Shown here piece after piece: positions 1-22,241 of a stretch of 22,241 nucleotides of DNA. A program made the translations under genes and the position numbers. The notes beneath the pieces were generated by a model. That model had not been told where the DNA came from and did not search any database. It saw nothing but the letters and a program-made list of their open reading frames with translations. The DNA is taken from UHGV virus genome UHGV-1381228, one strand, 5' to 3'. This DNA comes from a virus. How positions within the stretch are numbered: position 1 is the stretch's first letter; each line of letters begins with the position of its first letter.

Positions 1-46
1 AGATCAGCCTCGGTCTCGTGGGCTCGGAGATGTGTATAAGAGACAG
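1..46. other. Illumina Nextera adapter remnant (index-containing primer sequence plus Tn5 mosaic end AGATGTGTATAAGAGACAG); not biological
   Basis: Bases 13-46 read GTCTCGTGGGCTCGG + AGATGTGTATAAGAGACAG, the Nextera read-2 transposase adapter; the preceding 8 nt CAGCCTCG sit where an i7 index would be. Confidence 0.9.
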
Positions 47-931
47 GATATCAACTGGTGAAAAATTTGGTGCGCTTGTAGACTCGCCGCGAGAGTTAAT
101 AAATCTGCCGACACCACCAAACGCCACCCCAAGAACAGCATCAATAGCAATTGCCTGTCGATCCAACACATCATACTGGTTAGCCATTTCGCTATAGCCA
201 CCATCACGAAGCGTTTTTGCAGTAAGCCCACGCTGTGCCATACCGAACGCAATATTTGTACCTGCGGCATAGGCAATATCTGGCGTTGCACGTACTGCTG
301 TTGCTGCGGCGCGTCGCACTGAACTTTCACCCGTCCGCGCAAGCTGAGCCGCCACACCTTCCGCCAGCGCACCACCAGCACGTAACCCGAGGCTCATAGG
401 GATCAGTGTTCCGGCACCAGCAGTAATACCCTGCACTAATCCCGCTTCCTGCGCCGTCCTGAAATCAACACCCTGTGCTGTAAGCCGTTCAAACTCAGAA
501 AAACCCTGTAGAGAAGTTACCGCCGCAGCACCTCCGACCGGACCACCGAGCGTTGTACCGACAACAGCCTGCCCGCCCATATCGAACAACCCATAAAGGA
601 CCTGCCCGGCGGTTCCGGTTGTCGCGGCATCAGGCGTCAGCCGCTTAACCTGCTGCTCTGCTAGTTTTCTCTGCTCAGCAATGTATGAAACTGAAGTGTC
701 ATTGATCGAGGTGTTTTCGTTAACAAACTGAGCAATCGGGGATACGATTTTATCCATCCCTGCCCATAGCAACTGATCTGGCTTTGCCACCAGCCCGGAG
801 TACAAACCAGACAATGCCGCTCCTACAGCATTGTCGAAAAAACCAACATCGCTGTTAAAGCCAGCTGGATTTGATGCTGCTTCGTCAAGCTGCTGATTCT
901 GGTTTACTGGATTAAGGCCAAAGTAACTCAT
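47..931 (-). CDS. virion internal/ejection-type protein, truncated by contig end (N-terminal 295 codons present)
   Basis: Open minus-strand frame from ATG at 931-929 (overlapping the upstream TGA as ATGA) to the adapter boundary with no stop; translation starts MSYFGLNPVNQNQQLDEAAS and is Gly/Ala-rich; not in the ORF track because it has no stop in the window. Confidence 0.5.
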
Positions 932-9742: not shown

Positions 9743-10444
9743 TTATTTGCCATAGAGCACTTCGGCCGCACTACGCTGGCCTTCATTACCACCGGTGACC
9801 ATGCCATCTTCAGACATCGCCTTTCCGATTTTCACGAACGTTTTGACCAGATCAGGGTGATTACCCAGCCCGGTGGTGTTCAGATATTCTTTGAGTTCAG
9901 GTGTCCCGAACTGGTCAAGCGCACGCTGTGCGGCGCTAAGGTTAGAAATCAACTTGTCGCCACCGATTTCTTTGTCGGCTTTTACATCCGCAGCCCACTG
10001 CTCGGTTGTTTTCTGCCAGGCTTCTGCCTGGCGCTGCTGAACACCTGCCAGAATCTTCGGATAAGCATCAACCAGCTTTTGCGCTTGCTCGTTGGTCAGG
10101 TTTAGTTCTCGCGCCACCGGCTCGAATTCCTTCAACGCTTCTGTATCCAGCTCTACGCCTTCGGCAGCCTGAAACTCGTACTTTTCAGGCGCACCCTCTG
10201 GTTTATCGCCGTCCTTTTTTTCATCCTGCTTATCGTTTTCAGGCTTTTTGTCATCAGCAGGTTTATCGCCATCAGCAACAGGTTGTGGCTTATCACCTTC
10301 CTGTTGTGATGGATCACCAACTGGAGCAGGGTTATCACCTGCAGGCGCTGACGGTTCTGACGCAGCCGGAGCTGCTCCACCATCGACTGGTTGCTCATTG
10401 CAAAGACGGCGATACAGCAAACGCTCAAATAAATTCATGATCAC
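9743..10444 (-). CDS. scaffolding protein (233 aa)
   Basis: Highly acidic, Pro/Asp/Glu/Lys-rich low-complexity N-terminal half and helical C-terminal half; located between portal and capsid. Confidence 0.6.
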   Translation of the reverse strand: MIMNLFERLLYRRLCNEQPVDGGAAPAASEPSAPAGDNPAPVGDPSQQEGDKPQPVADGDKPADDKKPENDKQDEKKDGDKPEGAPEKYEFQAAEGVELDTEALKEFEPVARELNLTNEQAQKLVDAYPKILAGVQQRQAEAWQKTTEQWAADVKADKEIGGDKLISNLSAAQRALDQFGTPELKEYLNTTGLGNHPDLVKTFVKIGKAMSEDGMVTGGNEGQRSAAEVLYGK

Positions 10445-10737
10445 TCCTGTTCACTGGCCTCTTTGGCCATCTTCAAATACTGTTCAGGGCAATGCGCCAT
10501 AACGCGCTGAAACAGTTCCAGCGCCAGATTGCGTTGCCCCTCATTAAATGCCATTGCCATAGCATCCATCGGAGAGATAGCGGAAAACACCCGGCCTTTC
10601 TCCAGCACCGACCAGACAACGCGACGCCCCTGTTCACTGCTCATGACAAAGCGAATGTCATCAATTTCACGCTGTGCCATGTCACGTTGCTTACGGGCGT
10701 TTTCTTCTTTCAGTTGATCGTCTTCGAAATCTGTCAT
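10441..10737 (-). CDS. hypothetical head-assembly operon protein (98 aa)
   Basis: ORF overlapping portal stop and scaffold start (translational coupling). Confidence 0.45.
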   Translation of the reverse strand: MTDFEDDQLKEENARKQRDMAQREIDDIRFVMSSEQGRRVVWSVLEKGRVFSAISPMDAMAMAFNEGQRNLALELFQRVMAHCPEQYLKMAKEASEQE

Positions 10738-13061: not shown

Positions 13062-13138
13062 GTGGCATTAGCTCAGTTGGACAGAGCAACCGCCTTCTAA
13101 GCGGTTGGTCGCAGGTTCGAATCCTGCATGCCACGCCA
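13062..13138 (+). tRNA. tRNA-Arg (anticodon TCT, reads AGA), 77 nt including encoded CCA
   Basis: Cloverleaf read by hand: acceptor GTGGCAT/ATGCCAC, D-arm GCTC/GAGC, anticodon stem ACCGC/GCGGT with loop CTTCTAA, T-arm GCAGG-TTCGAAT-CCTGC, discriminator G then CCA. Confidence 0.9.
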
Positions 13139-13181
13139 GAATCACGCCTAAGGACCGTGATGCCAGAAGTTCCAGGTGCTT

Positions 13182-13223
13182 GGCGGTGATGGTTTCCCTT
13201 GAAGGACTATCACCGCCCTTTTT
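13182..13223 (+). terminator. intrinsic terminator-like hairpin downstream of the tRNA
   Basis: GGCGGTGAT ... ATCACCGCC 9-bp inverted repeat followed by CTTTTT. Confidence 0.5.
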
Positions 13224-13301
13224 ACAGCAGGACGCCATTGCGATGACTTCATGCTGTAAACCAGTACAGCCACGGAAGGCATAACTCATTGCTTCCAGTT
13301 C

Positions 13302-13326
13302 GCCCGGTTCGTCCGGGCATTTTTTT
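13302..13326 (+). terminator. strong intrinsic terminator (GCCCGG-TTCGT-CCGGGC then TTTTTT)
   Basis: Perfect 6-bp GC stem, 5-nt loop and T6 run; ends 1 nt before the AAGGTG Shine-Dalgarno of the plus-strand ORF. Confidence 0.6.
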
Positions 13327-13338
13327 AAGGTGAAAATC

Positions 13339-13671
13339 ATGAAAGAGAAGACTGCAGCTGAGCGCTATGCCGCAGCTATCAATGCCGCGATGGCGATTGT
13401 AAACCTGCGTGAAGAGATTAAAGATCTCCTTGCAATTATCCATAACAACCTGACATGTACAGAGTTGCTTGGCGGTCAGTACAACGGTGAGGCGGTGAAG
13501 GAGGCATTTAAAAATGCCGAGGTAGGAATAATTCCAGCAAACTATGTCAAGGCTGAATGTGTGCTCCTAAAGGCACGAGTGAGTCTGCATGAAGATCCTG
13601 GTAATCTCGGTCGAACTGCAATGCGTTACGTGATAGACGAGTCGAATGCCAAACACAATCTACCGAAATAA
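13339..13671 (+). CDS. hypothetical protein of unknown function (110 aa), opposite-strand moron-like gene
   Basis: Protein-like ORF on the plus strand between terL and the tRNA; ATG at 13339 with AAGGTG 6 nt upstream (the track start at 13330 is an upstream GTG); no recognisable domain. Confidence 0.55.
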   Translation: MKEKTAAERYAAAINAAMAIVNLREEIKDLLAIIHNNLTCTELLGGQYNGEAVKEAFKNAEVGIIPANYVKAECVLLKARVSLHEDPGNLGRTAMRYVIDESNAKHNLPK

Positions 13672-13675
13672 CACC

Positions 13676-13687
13676 GTGACATGTCAC
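13676..13687. repeat. 12-bp perfect palindrome GTGACATGTCAC (copy 1, downstream of terL)
   Basis: Identical 14-mer CGTGACATGTCACA also present at 15940-15953; the two copies sit on either side of terS-terL. Confidence 0.6.
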
Positions 13688-13761
13688 AAACAGACAGCCT
13701 ATGAGCTGGCTTTGTTTTATCCTCACCAGAGGATATCAACGACATTATCCCCACCAGCGGA

Positions 13762-15237
13762 TTAAGCATAGGGATCGTAATCTGTGATGGCCTTGCCTTG
13801 CTGGTTCTGCTGACCGGGAATTCGCAGACGCTTCGACACAGGGAACGCAAACGTCAGCAGTAGCGCATCGCCTTTACCAGGAGAACGCCCAAGTCGCTCT
13901 TTGATATCTTCCTTCGGTTCGATAACGATTTTACCGTCCACTCGAACTTTGTACTCTGCTGCCGACAGGTCGTCCGCTGTTTCCTGGTCATCCAGCATGC
14001 CGCCCAGCCTCAGCCATGTCTTGCATGAATTGAACATCTCCCCACGCTTGTTGAGCATCTGCGGGTCAGTAGACGCGCCACCGAACGGAACAAGTTGCCA
14101 TGTACGACCCCATCCGTCACCGATTGACTTCAGACCGGTTCCGTAACCGAAGTCGATGAACACCGCGTCAGCCTGATACTGGTCTTCAAAGTCAGCGATA
14201 CGCTTCGCCATAATCAGATCGTCGGTAGTCTTGTTGCCAGTCCACAGCACCTTACTGTGTAGCCCCTGCCGCAGGTATATCACCGCGTCATCAACGCCTG
14301 AATATGCCGGGTCAACACCGATTATCACCGGAGCATGCGCCACCTGCGCAGCGGTTACCACCCGTTTCATTGCCTCATCAGTAAGACCGGTAGGGATAAA
14401 CTGCAATTCAGATGCATCAGGGAATATGCCGCGCACACGGATTTTAACGAAGTCGCTGTCTTCCCCGTAGTCATCAACCCATTTCTGCAACTGCTGTTTG
14501 TTAGTGCCTTCCACCGTTCGGCTGTCAATCTGCGCAGTTTTCCAGCGGTGTTTATATTTGCGGAAACATTCGCGGAAACGTCCGGTATTACGCGTCGGGT
14601 TTCCGAACGCCACCCAGATAATCTCAGTGTCTTCGTCCGTTAGTGCACCCTCGGCAACTTCCCACACCAGATCCGCAATGTTCGACGCTTCATCGAATAC
14701 CACGATGATGCGTTTGCGCTCGTTGTGTAGTCCGGCGAATGCCTCAGTGTTGTGCTCAGACCAGGGGATTGCGTCAGCTCGCCACCGCTTGTCGTGCCCA
14801 GGATCATTGCTGTACATCGCGGTAGCGGTACAGGTAAACCAGTCTTTCGTGATAGCAAGGTTCGACCACTTGATAATTTCCGGCCAGGTCTTCGTTCGTA
14901 GCTGGTTGTCGGTGTTGGCGGTCACCACGACCTTACAATCCTCGCAAGTGGACATGCCCCAGTTGATCAGCATTGAGATGAATGCGGATTTACCAATACC
15001 GTGACCCGAAGCACGTGCCAGCATAAGCGGCTGATAGCGCGTCTCTGGATTCTGCAGGTGATCACGTATCTCTCGGAACGCATCAGCCTGCCACTGACGT
15101 GGGCCGGTAGCATGTGCCAGTTCAGTCCCCTCTTCCCCCCACGGGAACGCATAGAGGGCATAGCCAAGCGGATCGTGAGTGAACCCTGCAATATCCTCGA
15201 TCAACTGCTCTTCAGGAGATAACGCTGTATCTGTCAC
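13762..15237 (-). CDS. terminase large subunit (491 aa)
   Basis: Walker-A-like GHGIGKS near the N-terminus and a C-terminal nuclease-type motif VIIGVDPAYSGVDDAVI; size and position upstream of portal; start overlaps the terS stop (GTGA). Confidence 0.85.
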   Translation of the reverse strand: MTDTALSPEEQLIEDIAGFTHDPLGYALYAFPWGEEGTELAHATGPRQWQADAFREIRDHLQNPETRYQPLMLARASGHGIGKSAFISMLINWGMSTCEDCKVVVTANTDNQLRTKTWPEIIKWSNLAITKDWFTCTATAMYSNDPGHDKRWRADAIPWSEHNTEAFAGLHNERKRIIVVFDEASNIADLVWEVAEGALTDEDTEIIWVAFGNPTRNTGRFRECFRKYKHRWKTAQIDSRTVEGTNKQQLQKWVDDYGEDSDFVKIRVRGIFPDASELQFIPTGLTDEAMKRVVTAAQVAHAPVIIGVDPAYSGVDDAVIYLRQGLHSKVLWTGNKTTDDLIMAKRIADFEDQYQADAVFIDFGYGTGLKSIGDGWGRTWQLVPFGGASTDPQMLNKRGEMFNSCKTWLRLGGMLDDQETADDLSAAEYKVRVDGKIVIEPKEDIKERLGRSPGKGDALLLTFAFPVSKRLRIPGQQNQQGKAITDYDPYA

Positions 15238-15830
15238 TGATTACCATCCTGACGTTCTTTGAGTCGCTTCCTGGCTGCTGCTATGCGATCAGCAATTGTC
15301 ACATTCACATTAACATCCAGACGTTCTTTGAACGCGTTGACATCAACATGCTTACCAATCAGCTCAAGGTTCTTCACCTTGTCAGGCCATTTAATTTTTT
15401 TGAGGATTGTCTCTATCGAATCCTCGTTCATGTTCATGATGGTCGATGACAGATCAAAGCCACTAAGCGTAGTGCGCCAGATTTTCGGCCACTCACGGAT
15501 TGGTTTAAGGCTCCCATCGTCGTTGAGGATGTCGATCACGTCCATCTGGTCGATCTCCACCAGGCGCATGAGAACGTAATCAGCACTGACGCGCATTCGT
15601 TTGTTGCGCTCCTCCATCAACTCGGCAATCCGTTTTTGAATGCGTTCATCGCGCATCATGACACTGGCTTTAACTGCCGCTGTATTTGGGGAGAATCCTG
15701 CGTTAATCGCTGCCTGAGTCTGGTTTTCAGGCGTTTTGATGTATGACTGGCAATAAGCCTCCTGCATTGCTGTTAGTGGCTTAAATTGCGTTGATTTGCG
15801 TTTATAGGTTTTAGGTTCAGCAGGCATCAT
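15234..15830 (-). CDS. terminase small subunit (about 198 aa from ATG at 15830)
   Basis: Gene immediately upstream of and overlapping terL; the track start at 15908 (TTG) would place a terminator hairpin inside the ORF, so the tandem ATG ATG at 15830 (MMPAEPKTYKRK) is preferred. Confidence 0.6.
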   Translation of the reverse strand: MMPAEPKTYKRKSTQFKPLTAMQEAYCQSYIKTPENQTQAAINAGFSPNTAAVKASVMMRDERIQKRIAELMEERNKRMRVSADYVLMRLVEIDQMDVIDILNDDGSLKPIREWPKIWRTTLSGFDLSSTIMNMNEDSIETILKKIKWPDKVKNLELIGKHVDVNAFKERLDVNVNVTIADRIAAARKRLKERQDGNQ

Positions 15831-15872
15831 AACCACCGTGGTAATAGTTACCGTTGTGGTAATAGTACCATG

Positions 15873-15899
15873 CAAAATAAAGCCGCCATAGTTGGCGGC
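15873..15899 (-). terminator. intrinsic terminator-like hairpin immediately upstream of terS (GCCGCCA-ACTA-TGGCGGC then UUUAUUUUG)
   Basis: Perfect 7-bp GC-rich inverted repeat followed by a T-rich run on the minus strand, between the Cys-rich protein gene and terS. Confidence 0.55.
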
Positions 15900-15940
15900 A
15901 GTATTCAAAACCCATCAAATTCATCATGCATAATCTACTC

Positions 15941-15952
15941 GTGACATGTCAC
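15941..15952. repeat. 12-bp perfect palindrome GTGACATGTCAC (copy 2, upstream of terS)
   Basis: Identical to 13676-13687; overlaps the stop codon of the 115-aa gene. Confidence 0.6.
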
Positions 15953-16296
15953 ACTATTAATTTCGTTTCATGCCAGCCTTTAGTCACCCAGCATTGCGAG
16001 TCACCATTACACGGGCATGAATTAACTGGAACTCTCTCGCCGCACTTACCGCAACATTTTCTGCTGATCGATTTTATACGCCCGCGCACGCGTGCATCAT
16101 CCTGGCGGATCAGTAACGCGATGTACTCGGCCATTTCATAGGGATCGCGACCAGGGCGCCGGGCGGCGCAGTTCCGCGCCAGCATTTCCTGCTCCTGCTT
16201 ATCCAGCACCAGTTCAATTTTGCGCTCACCGGCGGCGGACTGCCGAGCGCGCTGCGCGGCTTTGCGTTCTGCGGGGGATTTAGCCACGAATCGCAC
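15949..16296 (-). CDS. small basic protein with C-terminal Cys-rich zinc-binding-like motif (115 aa); candidate regulator
   Basis: C-terminus KCCGKCGERVPVNSCPCNGDSQC; basic N-terminus; last gene before the terminator and terS. Confidence 0.45.
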   Translation of the reverse strand: MRFVAKSPAERKAAQRARQSAAGERKIELVLDKQEQEMLARNCAARRPGRDPYEMAEYIALLIRQDDARVRGRIKSISRKCCGKCGERVPVNSCPCNGDSQCWVTKGWHETKLIV

Positions 16297-22183: not shown

Positions 22184-22193
22184 AGCTATTGCC

Positions 22194-22241
22194 CTGTCTC
22201 TTATACACATCTGACGCTGCCGACGATATGCAGTGTGTAGA
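22194..22241. other. Illumina Nextera adapter remnant (Tn5 mosaic end CTGTCTCTTATACACATCT plus read-1 primer, index and P5 start); not biological
   Basis: CTGTCTCTTATACACATCTGACGCTGCCGACGA is the reverse complement of the Nextera read-1 adapter; followed by an 8-nt index-like TATGCAGT and GTGTAGA. Confidence 0.9.

Follow-up and report, generated by a model that had tools for sequence, protein, structure and literature searches.

Copies of a 12-bp palindrome at transcription-unit ends follow a predicted ribbon-helix-helix protein, and not the terminase, in epsilon15-like and other temperate phages

The virus genome UHGV-1381228, analyzed as a stretch of 22,241 nucleotides (nt; hereafter the window), carries a short DNA palindrome on each side of its terminase genes. 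The distribution and setting of this element and a candidate protein that may bind it are described here. Judged by its sequence, the window is an epsilon15/phiV10-like temperate podovirus (Uetakevirus) with 96–97% identity to several E. coli phages and ~81% identity to Salmonella phage epsilon15. Read in the minus-strand sense, the order of features is a gene of family PHROG 536, palindrome site 1, a terminator, two copies of a different palindrome (TTACC-N5-GGTAA), terS, terL, a hairpin and palindrome site 2. The PHROG 536 gene (15949–16287, minus strand) is the last early gene and specifies a 112-residue protein, equivalent to phiV10 gp55 and epsilon15 gp49, which is proposed below as the palindrome-binding factor. 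Site 1 (15940–15953) contains GTGACATGTCAC, reads as the 14-mer TGTGACATGTCACG in the sense of this gene and overlaps its TGA stop codon. A strong intrinsic terminator on the minus strand (15882–15899; GCCGCCAACTATGGCGGC followed by TTTATTTT) is situated ~45 nt past site 1 and before terS, and the equivalent hairpin carries a terminator annotation in epsilon15. The two TTACC-N5-GGTAA palindromes (15830–15862) are just upstream of terS and match protein_bind sites labeled 'repressor' in epsilon15.

The gene for the small terminase subunit, terS (15234–15830, minus strand), was recognized by Pfam PF03592 (E = 1.4e-29) and its start was assigned by homology to epsilon15 gp1. The gene for the large subunit, terL (13762–15237, minus strand), belongs to PHROG 2 and its product is 100% identical to phiV10 gp2. 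Site 2 (13675–13688) lies between terL and a convergent plus-strand unit that consists of a tRNA-Arg gene with anticodon TCT (13062–13138), terminators at 13182–13217 and 13302–13318, and a cargo gene of 110 codons (13339–13671; PHROG 27507) in a slot that is variable in relatives. The site is placed 4 nt past the cargo stop codon and abuts the hairpin (13691–13716) that separates it from terL. This hairpin has a terminator annotation in phiV10 and is a bidirectional terminator in relatives; the window copy has a point change that weakens its stem, and its T-run is stronger in the direction of the cargo gene.

The palindrome occurs as an exact 14-mer on the plus strand, CGTGACATGTCACA, with two copies in the window at 13675–13688 and 15940–15953. 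Its core is the perfect 12-bp palindrome GTGACATGTCAC at 13676–13687 and 15941–15952, which confirms the two identical copies, 2265 bp apart, that had been described in a sequence-only reading of this DNA. Site 2 is 74 nt downstream of the terL stop codon and site 1 is ~110 nt upstream of the terS start codon, and identity between the copies ends at the borders of the 14-mer. The sequence-only reading had regarded the pair as unlikely to arise by chance. This view was borne out for the palindrome, as five distinct 12-bp palindromes are present in the window, GTGACATGTCAC alone is repeated, and a repeated perfect 12-bp palindrome appeared in just 2 of 300 simulations. It did not extend to repeated 14-mers as such, which are not rare (24 in the window versus ~3 per window in Markov-1 simulations). 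The identical flanking bases that it also noted are present in both window copies but are not fixed in relatives, in which the outer positions of the 14-mer are T or C on one side and G, A or T on the other. Thus, the unit is the 12-mer GTGAC-NN-GTCAC. A further copy with one mismatch (10673–10686) is within a coding region and is probably due to chance. Many IMG/VR matches to the 14-mer were also coincidental matches in coding sequence, for example at the MRDMSQ N-terminus of Q-like proteins.

As RNA, the motif would form a 4-bp stem of only −2.7 kcal/mol and the tRNA was the sole Rfam match in the region, and an RNA hairpin or known RNA family was ruled out. When GTGACA was treated as a −35 element, the candidate partner (CATGAT after 18 nt) gave a weak match (9 of 12 positions) that is absent from relatives. 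Promoter-like matches numbered three in the window compared to 4.6 expected, and no conserved promoter or −10 element was found at a fixed distance from the site in the relatives compared. With a weak fold, no RNA family and no promoter that is kept, the motif is best described as a DNA element inside or between transcription units. A genome end or cos site was discarded: the phiV10 record opens in mid-palindrome merely because it was cut after the stop codon of the last gene. The operator annotated in epsilon15 was rejected as the identity of the motif since that palindrome differs (TTACC-N5-GGTAA). Sites for CRP, LexA and SlmA were set aside since their spacing or key bases are unsuited.

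The 12-mer is present in exactly three copies in each of the complete genomes of phiV10, epsilon15 and SPN1S, which are ~80% identical in DNA sequence, and the copies occupy equivalent positions (one phiV10 copy has a single mismatch). The expected count for a pattern with ten fixed bases is ~0.04 per 39-kb genome. The three positions are the stop codon of the PHROG 536 gene, the vicinity of the terminator after terL, and the vicinity of the terminator that ends the structural operon. The third of these is ~17 kb further on, outside the window, where the long structural operon meets a convergent unit, one gene of which, in phiV10, specifies a Bro-N domain and part of an antirepressor domain. 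Among 80 IMG/VR loci picked solely by the presence of this terL, the protein was encoded in 79, the stop-codon site was present in 75, and the second site was found within the fetched stretch in at least 56; site 2 is kept in phiV10, epsilon15, SPN1S and most of these loci. The feature is real and conserved.

The sequences next to the motif are far from constant. Unrelated DNA often begins directly at the motif in different genomes and many different right-hand flanks directly follow the same 14-mer. At each of the three positions the motif borders on variable DNA; the variants are different cargo genes, integrase or LexA/umuD modules and a 186-nt indel. The slot after terL accommodates differing cargo genes, each of which ends with the stop codon, CRCC, GTGACATGTCAC and a hairpin in that order, and in one locus (L167) two such cassettes follow each other in tandem, both complete with motif and hairpin. 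The 186-nt indel abuts site 1 (window 15900–15939 versus 750–950 in locus L008). Some relatives have an ORF (open reading frame) of 70 codons (MPKIRYDLEDM...) between site 1 and the terminator, and the window keeps an 8-codon remnant (MHDEFDGF) that shares the last codons of this ORF. The mosaic junctions are most readily understood as resulting from an element that is functional and conserved, not as the reason for its conservation. The idea in the sequence-only reading that the motif bounds exchangeable terminase cassettes was not supported as stated, as the terminase in every relative with both sites is of the same terS/terL family (69–100% and 72–100% identity, respectively); the notion of a boundary retains some truth for the small cargo that abuts the motif.

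The association between the motif and the PHROG 536 protein was followed in both directions, and the samples that led from protein to site were assembled without use of the motif. A protein search provided 12 homologues from different Enterobacterales species, eight of which have GTGACATGTCAC over the stop codon; a one-base variant is within 6 nt in two, a variant is at 81 and 205 nt in two, and none is nearby in one. In two distant subfamilies (35% and 45% identity), GTGAC-NN-GTCAC was within 30 nt of the stop codon at all eight loci. The homologous gene for gp13 of a Yersinia P2-like myovirus follows replication gene A and has its stop codon within TGTGACGCGTCACA. The stop codon of the gene for gp45 in phiKO2, an N15-like linear-plasmid prophage, is within GTGACTGGTCAC, of which there are two further copies in the genome. 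Vibrio siphovirus K303 has three 12-mers, including one at 226 nt past the gene and one at 19 nt before the terS start codon. In the direction from site to protein, all IMG/VR stretches found with TGTGACGCGTCACA were taken (114); a family member was present in 52 and the site was at its stop codon in 45. The site overlaps the stop codon of 113 of 136 distinct family ORFs in a common register in which the last codon is NTG, for V, L or M, followed by TGA. As the motif requires NTG and TGA, the DNA element constrains the end of the coding sequence. Moreover, the site is still kept where integrase genes, a LexA-controlled umuD-like gene or other ORFs replace terS after the regulator. Protein and motif occur together in four unrelated phage groups: Uetakevirus, P2-like phages, N15-like phages, and Vibrio phages and prophages. 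The motif follows the PHROG 536 protein, not the terminase.

Several other arrangements of the palindrome were noted. In one sublineage (loci L241, L273 and L275) it is placed 3 nt upstream of the start codon of the regulator gene, and not on the stop codon. P2-like loci (L221, L234, L235, L237 and similar) possess a half-site, TGTGACG, ~19 nt after the stop-codon TGTGACGCGTCACA, which suggests cooperative binding of a second dimer. A LexA-box-like sequence (TACTGT-N8-ACAGTA) and a promoter are found just downstream of the stop-codon palindrome of the regulator in unrelated phages, both epsilon15-like (L005, L023, L034, L124 and L126) and Yersinia P2-like (L218, ~10020–10060). One of these promoters drives a umuD-like gene, and the arrangement hints at a link between the regulator and SOS-controlled modules. 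Dense, iteron-like arrays of GTGAC/GTCAC half-sites surround the full palindrome in unrelated viral contigs (L022, L070, L108, L225, L229, L231, L274, L296–L298, L310, L328 and L333). No PHROG 536 gene was present in the fetched stretches of these contigs, and another protein may use the same half-site.

The sole match of the 112-residue protein was to PHROG 536 'transcriptional regulator' (E = 6e-54); there was no sequence match in Pfam, NCBIfam or the PDB, nor any match to curated ribbon-helix-helix (RHH) families. Among the closest 120 of 748 homologues, each is named 'hypothetical protein' or is without a name. An AlphaFold model generated with a diverse alignment had a predicted local distance difference test score of 92.9, and the protein is predicted to have an RHH fold and a Cys4 module. 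The RHH assignment itself scores low, as would be expected of a small fold that needs the dimer to be complete. Three parts are apparent in the family alignment: a basic N-terminal helix (AERKxAQRxR) that is conserved, a presumed RHH core and a C-terminal Cys module. Two Cys residues of the module are invariant, a third is nearly so and a fourth is within a conserved GC motif, a pattern (CxxC...C...C) that suggests a Cys4 zinc site. An HNH packaging nuclease encoded beside terS, as is gp74 of HK97, was considered and discarded, as there was no HNH match and the predicted fold is RHH. These features resemble those of a protein that binds specific DNA sequences. The PHROG 536 product is the Cys-rich protein, given as 115 residues, that the sequence-only reading had singled out for DNA-binding assays, and it emerges from the comparisons as the best candidate to bind the palindrome.

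The GTGAC half-sites and the 2-bp spacing are constant across lineages, whereas the central two bases vary, with nine distinct dinucleotides seen that include AT, GC, AC, AG, CC and CA. In comparisons that were uncorrected for phylogeny, central AT pairs with the strand xRK[LI]E[LIV]xLD and central GC pairs with xxE[ILV]RxRLE in several sublineages. Strand residues 23, 25 and 27 co-vary with the dinucleotide and the N-terminal helix is constant, which would be expected if the ribbon reads the center of the site and the helix reads the half-sites. The proposal of a site for a dimeric regulator, also raised by the sequence-only reading, is consistent with the co-occurrence of family and motif in four phage groups, usually at the stop codon of the regulator gene itself, and with this strand co-variation. 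Thus, the GTGACATGTCAC copies are probably the cognate site, or operator, of the adjacent PHROG 536 protein.

The sites of this phage group are placed where transcription units end. A GC hairpin is within 32 nt of 31% of sites that are not on stop codons compared to 2.5% of random positions, and a terminator is within 120 nt downstream of 30% of family genes in distinct contexts compared to 1.7% at random. The units that meet at the sites are convergent in the case of terL and the tRNA/cargo unit, and of the structural operon and the antirepressor unit; in another phage type a further convergent pair comprises an unrelated ORF and a Rha/Ant-like gene. Action at transcription-unit boundaries is plausible. 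A PHROG 536 dimer would bind each palindrome, with the basic N-terminal helix reading the invariant outer half-sites and the β-ribbon reading the variable central bases. The bound protein would then constitute a roadblock that reinforces unit boundaries and stops read-through from the early operon and from convergent units. A symmetrical roadblock is favored because the sites are consistently at unit ends that typically are convergent. As the bound protein would cover the stop codon of its own gene, RNA polymerase might stall before this codon and synthesis of the regulator would be self-limited, in a manner that recalls LacI on O3. If binding is granted, the odds of a roadblock or insulator mechanism fall clearly short of even. 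For the combined statement that the PHROG 536 protein recognizes these palindromes and acts there at the boundaries of transcription units, with the exact consequence of binding left open, we estimate a probability of ~0.55.

A number of observations weigh against the boundary interpretation. One of the K303 sites is so close to the terS start codon (19 nt before it) that there is no room for a promoter, and the ribosome-binding site of the next gene directly follows site 1 in some relatives. A simple insulator fits poorly with these arrangements because a tight roadblock at such places would shut off the downstream genes. The co-variation described above ignores phylogeny, and the AT and GC types belong for the most part to different clades. 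The protein is the product of an early lytic gene, so that any role in the lysogen is hypothetical. Furthermore, the C-terminal zinc module could contact RNA polymerase, which would suit an activator or antiterminator equally well.

The same protein might instead bind its sites, board passing RNA polymerase and promote read-through of the adjacent terminator into terS-terL, with read-through at site 3 towards the tailspike gene, so that the palindromes would serve as several loading sites for a Q-like late switch. The regulator gene is last in the early operon and directly before the late genes, as is Q in lambda, and site 1 is followed by the terminator and then by terS. This layout is shared with the lambda Q/PR'/tR' region, in which the last early gene precedes a presumed DNA site after its stop codon, a terminator and the late (terminase) genes. 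In addition, K303 and some relatives place the site just upstream of a gene that needs transcription through it, and the Cys4 module could contact the polymerase. However, the lambda Q site is in a promoter, whereas no conserved promoter or −10 element is found at a fixed distance from the palindrome, the one weak match not being kept; of the features of qut, a downstream terminator and late genes are present here and a promoter-embedded element with a pause is not. The predicted fold also differs from that of Q, further sites are present at operon ends, the site 2 terminator precedes the site in the late direction, and RHH proteins mostly are repressors. A Q-like gene and a late promoter are already present in N15-like phages, and late genes of P2-like phages are served by a separate system with its own late activators. 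As the family thus also is found in phages that have Q or other late control, a late switch is not its common function, and local antitermination is considered unlikely. The protein could alternatively have an architectural role in which tetramers formed through the C-terminal module loop the DNA between the three sites and arrange the late region in two domains with no direct effect on polymerase. Several identical sites per genome, 2.3 and ~17 kb apart, the half-site ~19 nt from the full site in P2-like phages, and the proposal that MatP, an RHH protein with the same half-sites, bridges DNA are in keeping with such bridging. The single detectable site in some family members, among them the Yersinia phage, and the position on the stop codon, which looping leaves unexplained, make it unlikely too, and somewhat less credible than a switch of the Q type.

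The remaining explanations dispense with the PHROG 536 protein as the binding factor. If the motif and terminator were a passive linker, namely a short shared sequence that permits cargo swaps and is maintained by recombination rather than by binding, variable DNA would abut the motif as it does at all three positions, the tandem cassettes of L167 with their separate motifs and hairpins would be accounted for, and the RecT-like recombinases encoded by these phages could be the agents. Nevertheless, 12 bp is too short for recombination alone to preserve across four phage families and 35–45% protein identity, the half-sites never vary whereas the adjoining hairpins do, and co-variation with strand residues of a protein is unexpected for a passive sequence. 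The linker thus is improbable as the primary explanation, and it is compatible with regulator binding as a secondary consequence. A host protein might bind the palindrome with the phage gene merely linked to it, MatP being the obvious candidate. The matS consensus is the 13-bp sequence GTGAC[AG]N[TC]GTCAC (PMC3603311). Its half-sites are the same as those of the phage motif, and K303 additionally has one 13-mer that fits matS. Hosts of the family are Enterobacterales, Vibrio and Aeromonas, which fall within the MatP range. By contrast, the center of matS is 3 bp, whereas the phage site has a 12-bp length and a 2-bp center, never 3 bp, in every lineage seen and across nine central dinucleotides. 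Prophages also avoid true matS, and the tight linkage and co-variation with one phage gene point to a phage protein; a host factor accordingly has a slightly smaller chance still than the linker. The sequence-only reading had further suggested that the palindromes are bound by a packaging factor. On such a view they could be small-terminase (pac) sites that bracket their own genes. In this phage group, as in K303, a copy precedes terS, and the annotation of a headful-type terminase leads to the expectation of a pac site nearby. The suggestion is not supported, given the third copy 17 kb away and the P2-like and N15-like sites, which are far from the terminase genes of phages that package from cos sites. 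Moreover, the motif tracks PHROG 536 and not the type of terS, and it is kept in prophages with integrase genes after the regulator. Packaging can scarcely be its role.

Among characterized systems, the closest in kind to the proposed PHROG 536 regulator and its operators are Arc and Mnt of the P22 immI region, which also are phage RHH repressors with operators. Arc and Mnt operators overlap promoters and are ~21 bp, whereas the sites here are at gene 3′ ends and terminators. Arc and Mnt are without a zinc module and a basic N-terminal helix, both of which are predicted in the PHROG 536 protein, and Pfam and PDB sequence comparisons detected no similarity between the two. MatP differs in being a host chromosome organizer with a four-helix bundle and a coiled coil. 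A profile comparison of PHROG 536 with MatP revealed no similarity, a result that serves only as a lead since the MatP query sequence was provisional. The K303 13-mer that fits the true matS consensus, GTGACACCGTCAC (19491 in locus L219), adjoins a hairpin and coexists with the three 12-mer sites of this phage. The position of the operator over the end of the coding sequence of its regulator resembles LacI and O3. LacI bound to O3 at the 3′ end of lacI is reported (Abo et al. 2000) to act as a roadblock that yields truncated lacI mRNA and SsrA tagging. LacI is of an unrelated protein family and the lac case is a side effect of a looping operator, whereas overlap with the stop codon is the most conserved feature of the PHROG 536 system. 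T4-type promoter-plus-stem-loop (PeSL) units and the morons and boundary sequences of lambdoid phages provide a further parallel: small variable ORFs sit between short regulatory elements that are conserved, and each neighboring cassette has its own copy. Here, by contrast, the unit is an operator with a terminator at the 3′ end and is tied to a specific, predicted DNA-binding protein.

Searches of the accessible literature with the motif strings found nothing relevant, and the pairing of regulator and site, shared by several families of temperate phages that are not related, appears to be undescribed. It is possible, albeit rather doubtful, that protein binding at these sites represents a widespread RHH/zinc regulator-operator system of temperate phages in which the site acts as a portable, protein-dependent boundary element that cargo cassettes inherit together with a terminator. 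A bolder extension would make the protein a relative of MatP by descent, or a mimic of it, that during infection also acts on host matS sites or on MatP function. The identity of the half-sites with those of matS raises the question of how a one-bp change in spacing separates the phage system from the host Ter-macrodomain system. If the proposed binding is correct, it would provide both a function and a DNA target for a gene that is annotated as 'hypothetical' or 'transcriptional regulator' in four phage groups. The design would be unusual, with an operator fixed on the stop codon of its own regulator and at terminators, not at promoters, and would explain how convergent or inserted cargo units (tRNA, moron and antirepressor) are separated from late genes. 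In practice, the motif offers a simple means of locating operon boundaries and cargo slots in the sequences of these prophages.

Other features of the window include an ORF of 90 codons (13068–13340, minus strand) that overlaps the tRNA-Arg gene; it corresponds to PHROG 4647, a hypothetical protein in phiV10, and probably is no real gene. The structured region at this tRNA may be what the epsilon15 record lists as an 'RNaseIII' feature. A perfect 20-nt inverted repeat, AGATGTGTATAAGAGACAGG and CCTGTCTCTTATACACATCT, is located at the ends of the window (28–47 and 22193–22212). We take this repeat to be the Tn5/Nextera mosaic-end adapter, and the window is probably a whole assembled contig with remnants of library adapter. 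The TTACC-N5-GGTAA palindrome occurs five times in the window (12725, 15830, 15848, 19919 and 19981) compared to 0.29 expected. The copies precede terS and the portal operon or are within the immunity region, and match the prophage-repressor sites of epsilon15, a layout that suggests direct control of late units by the repressor.

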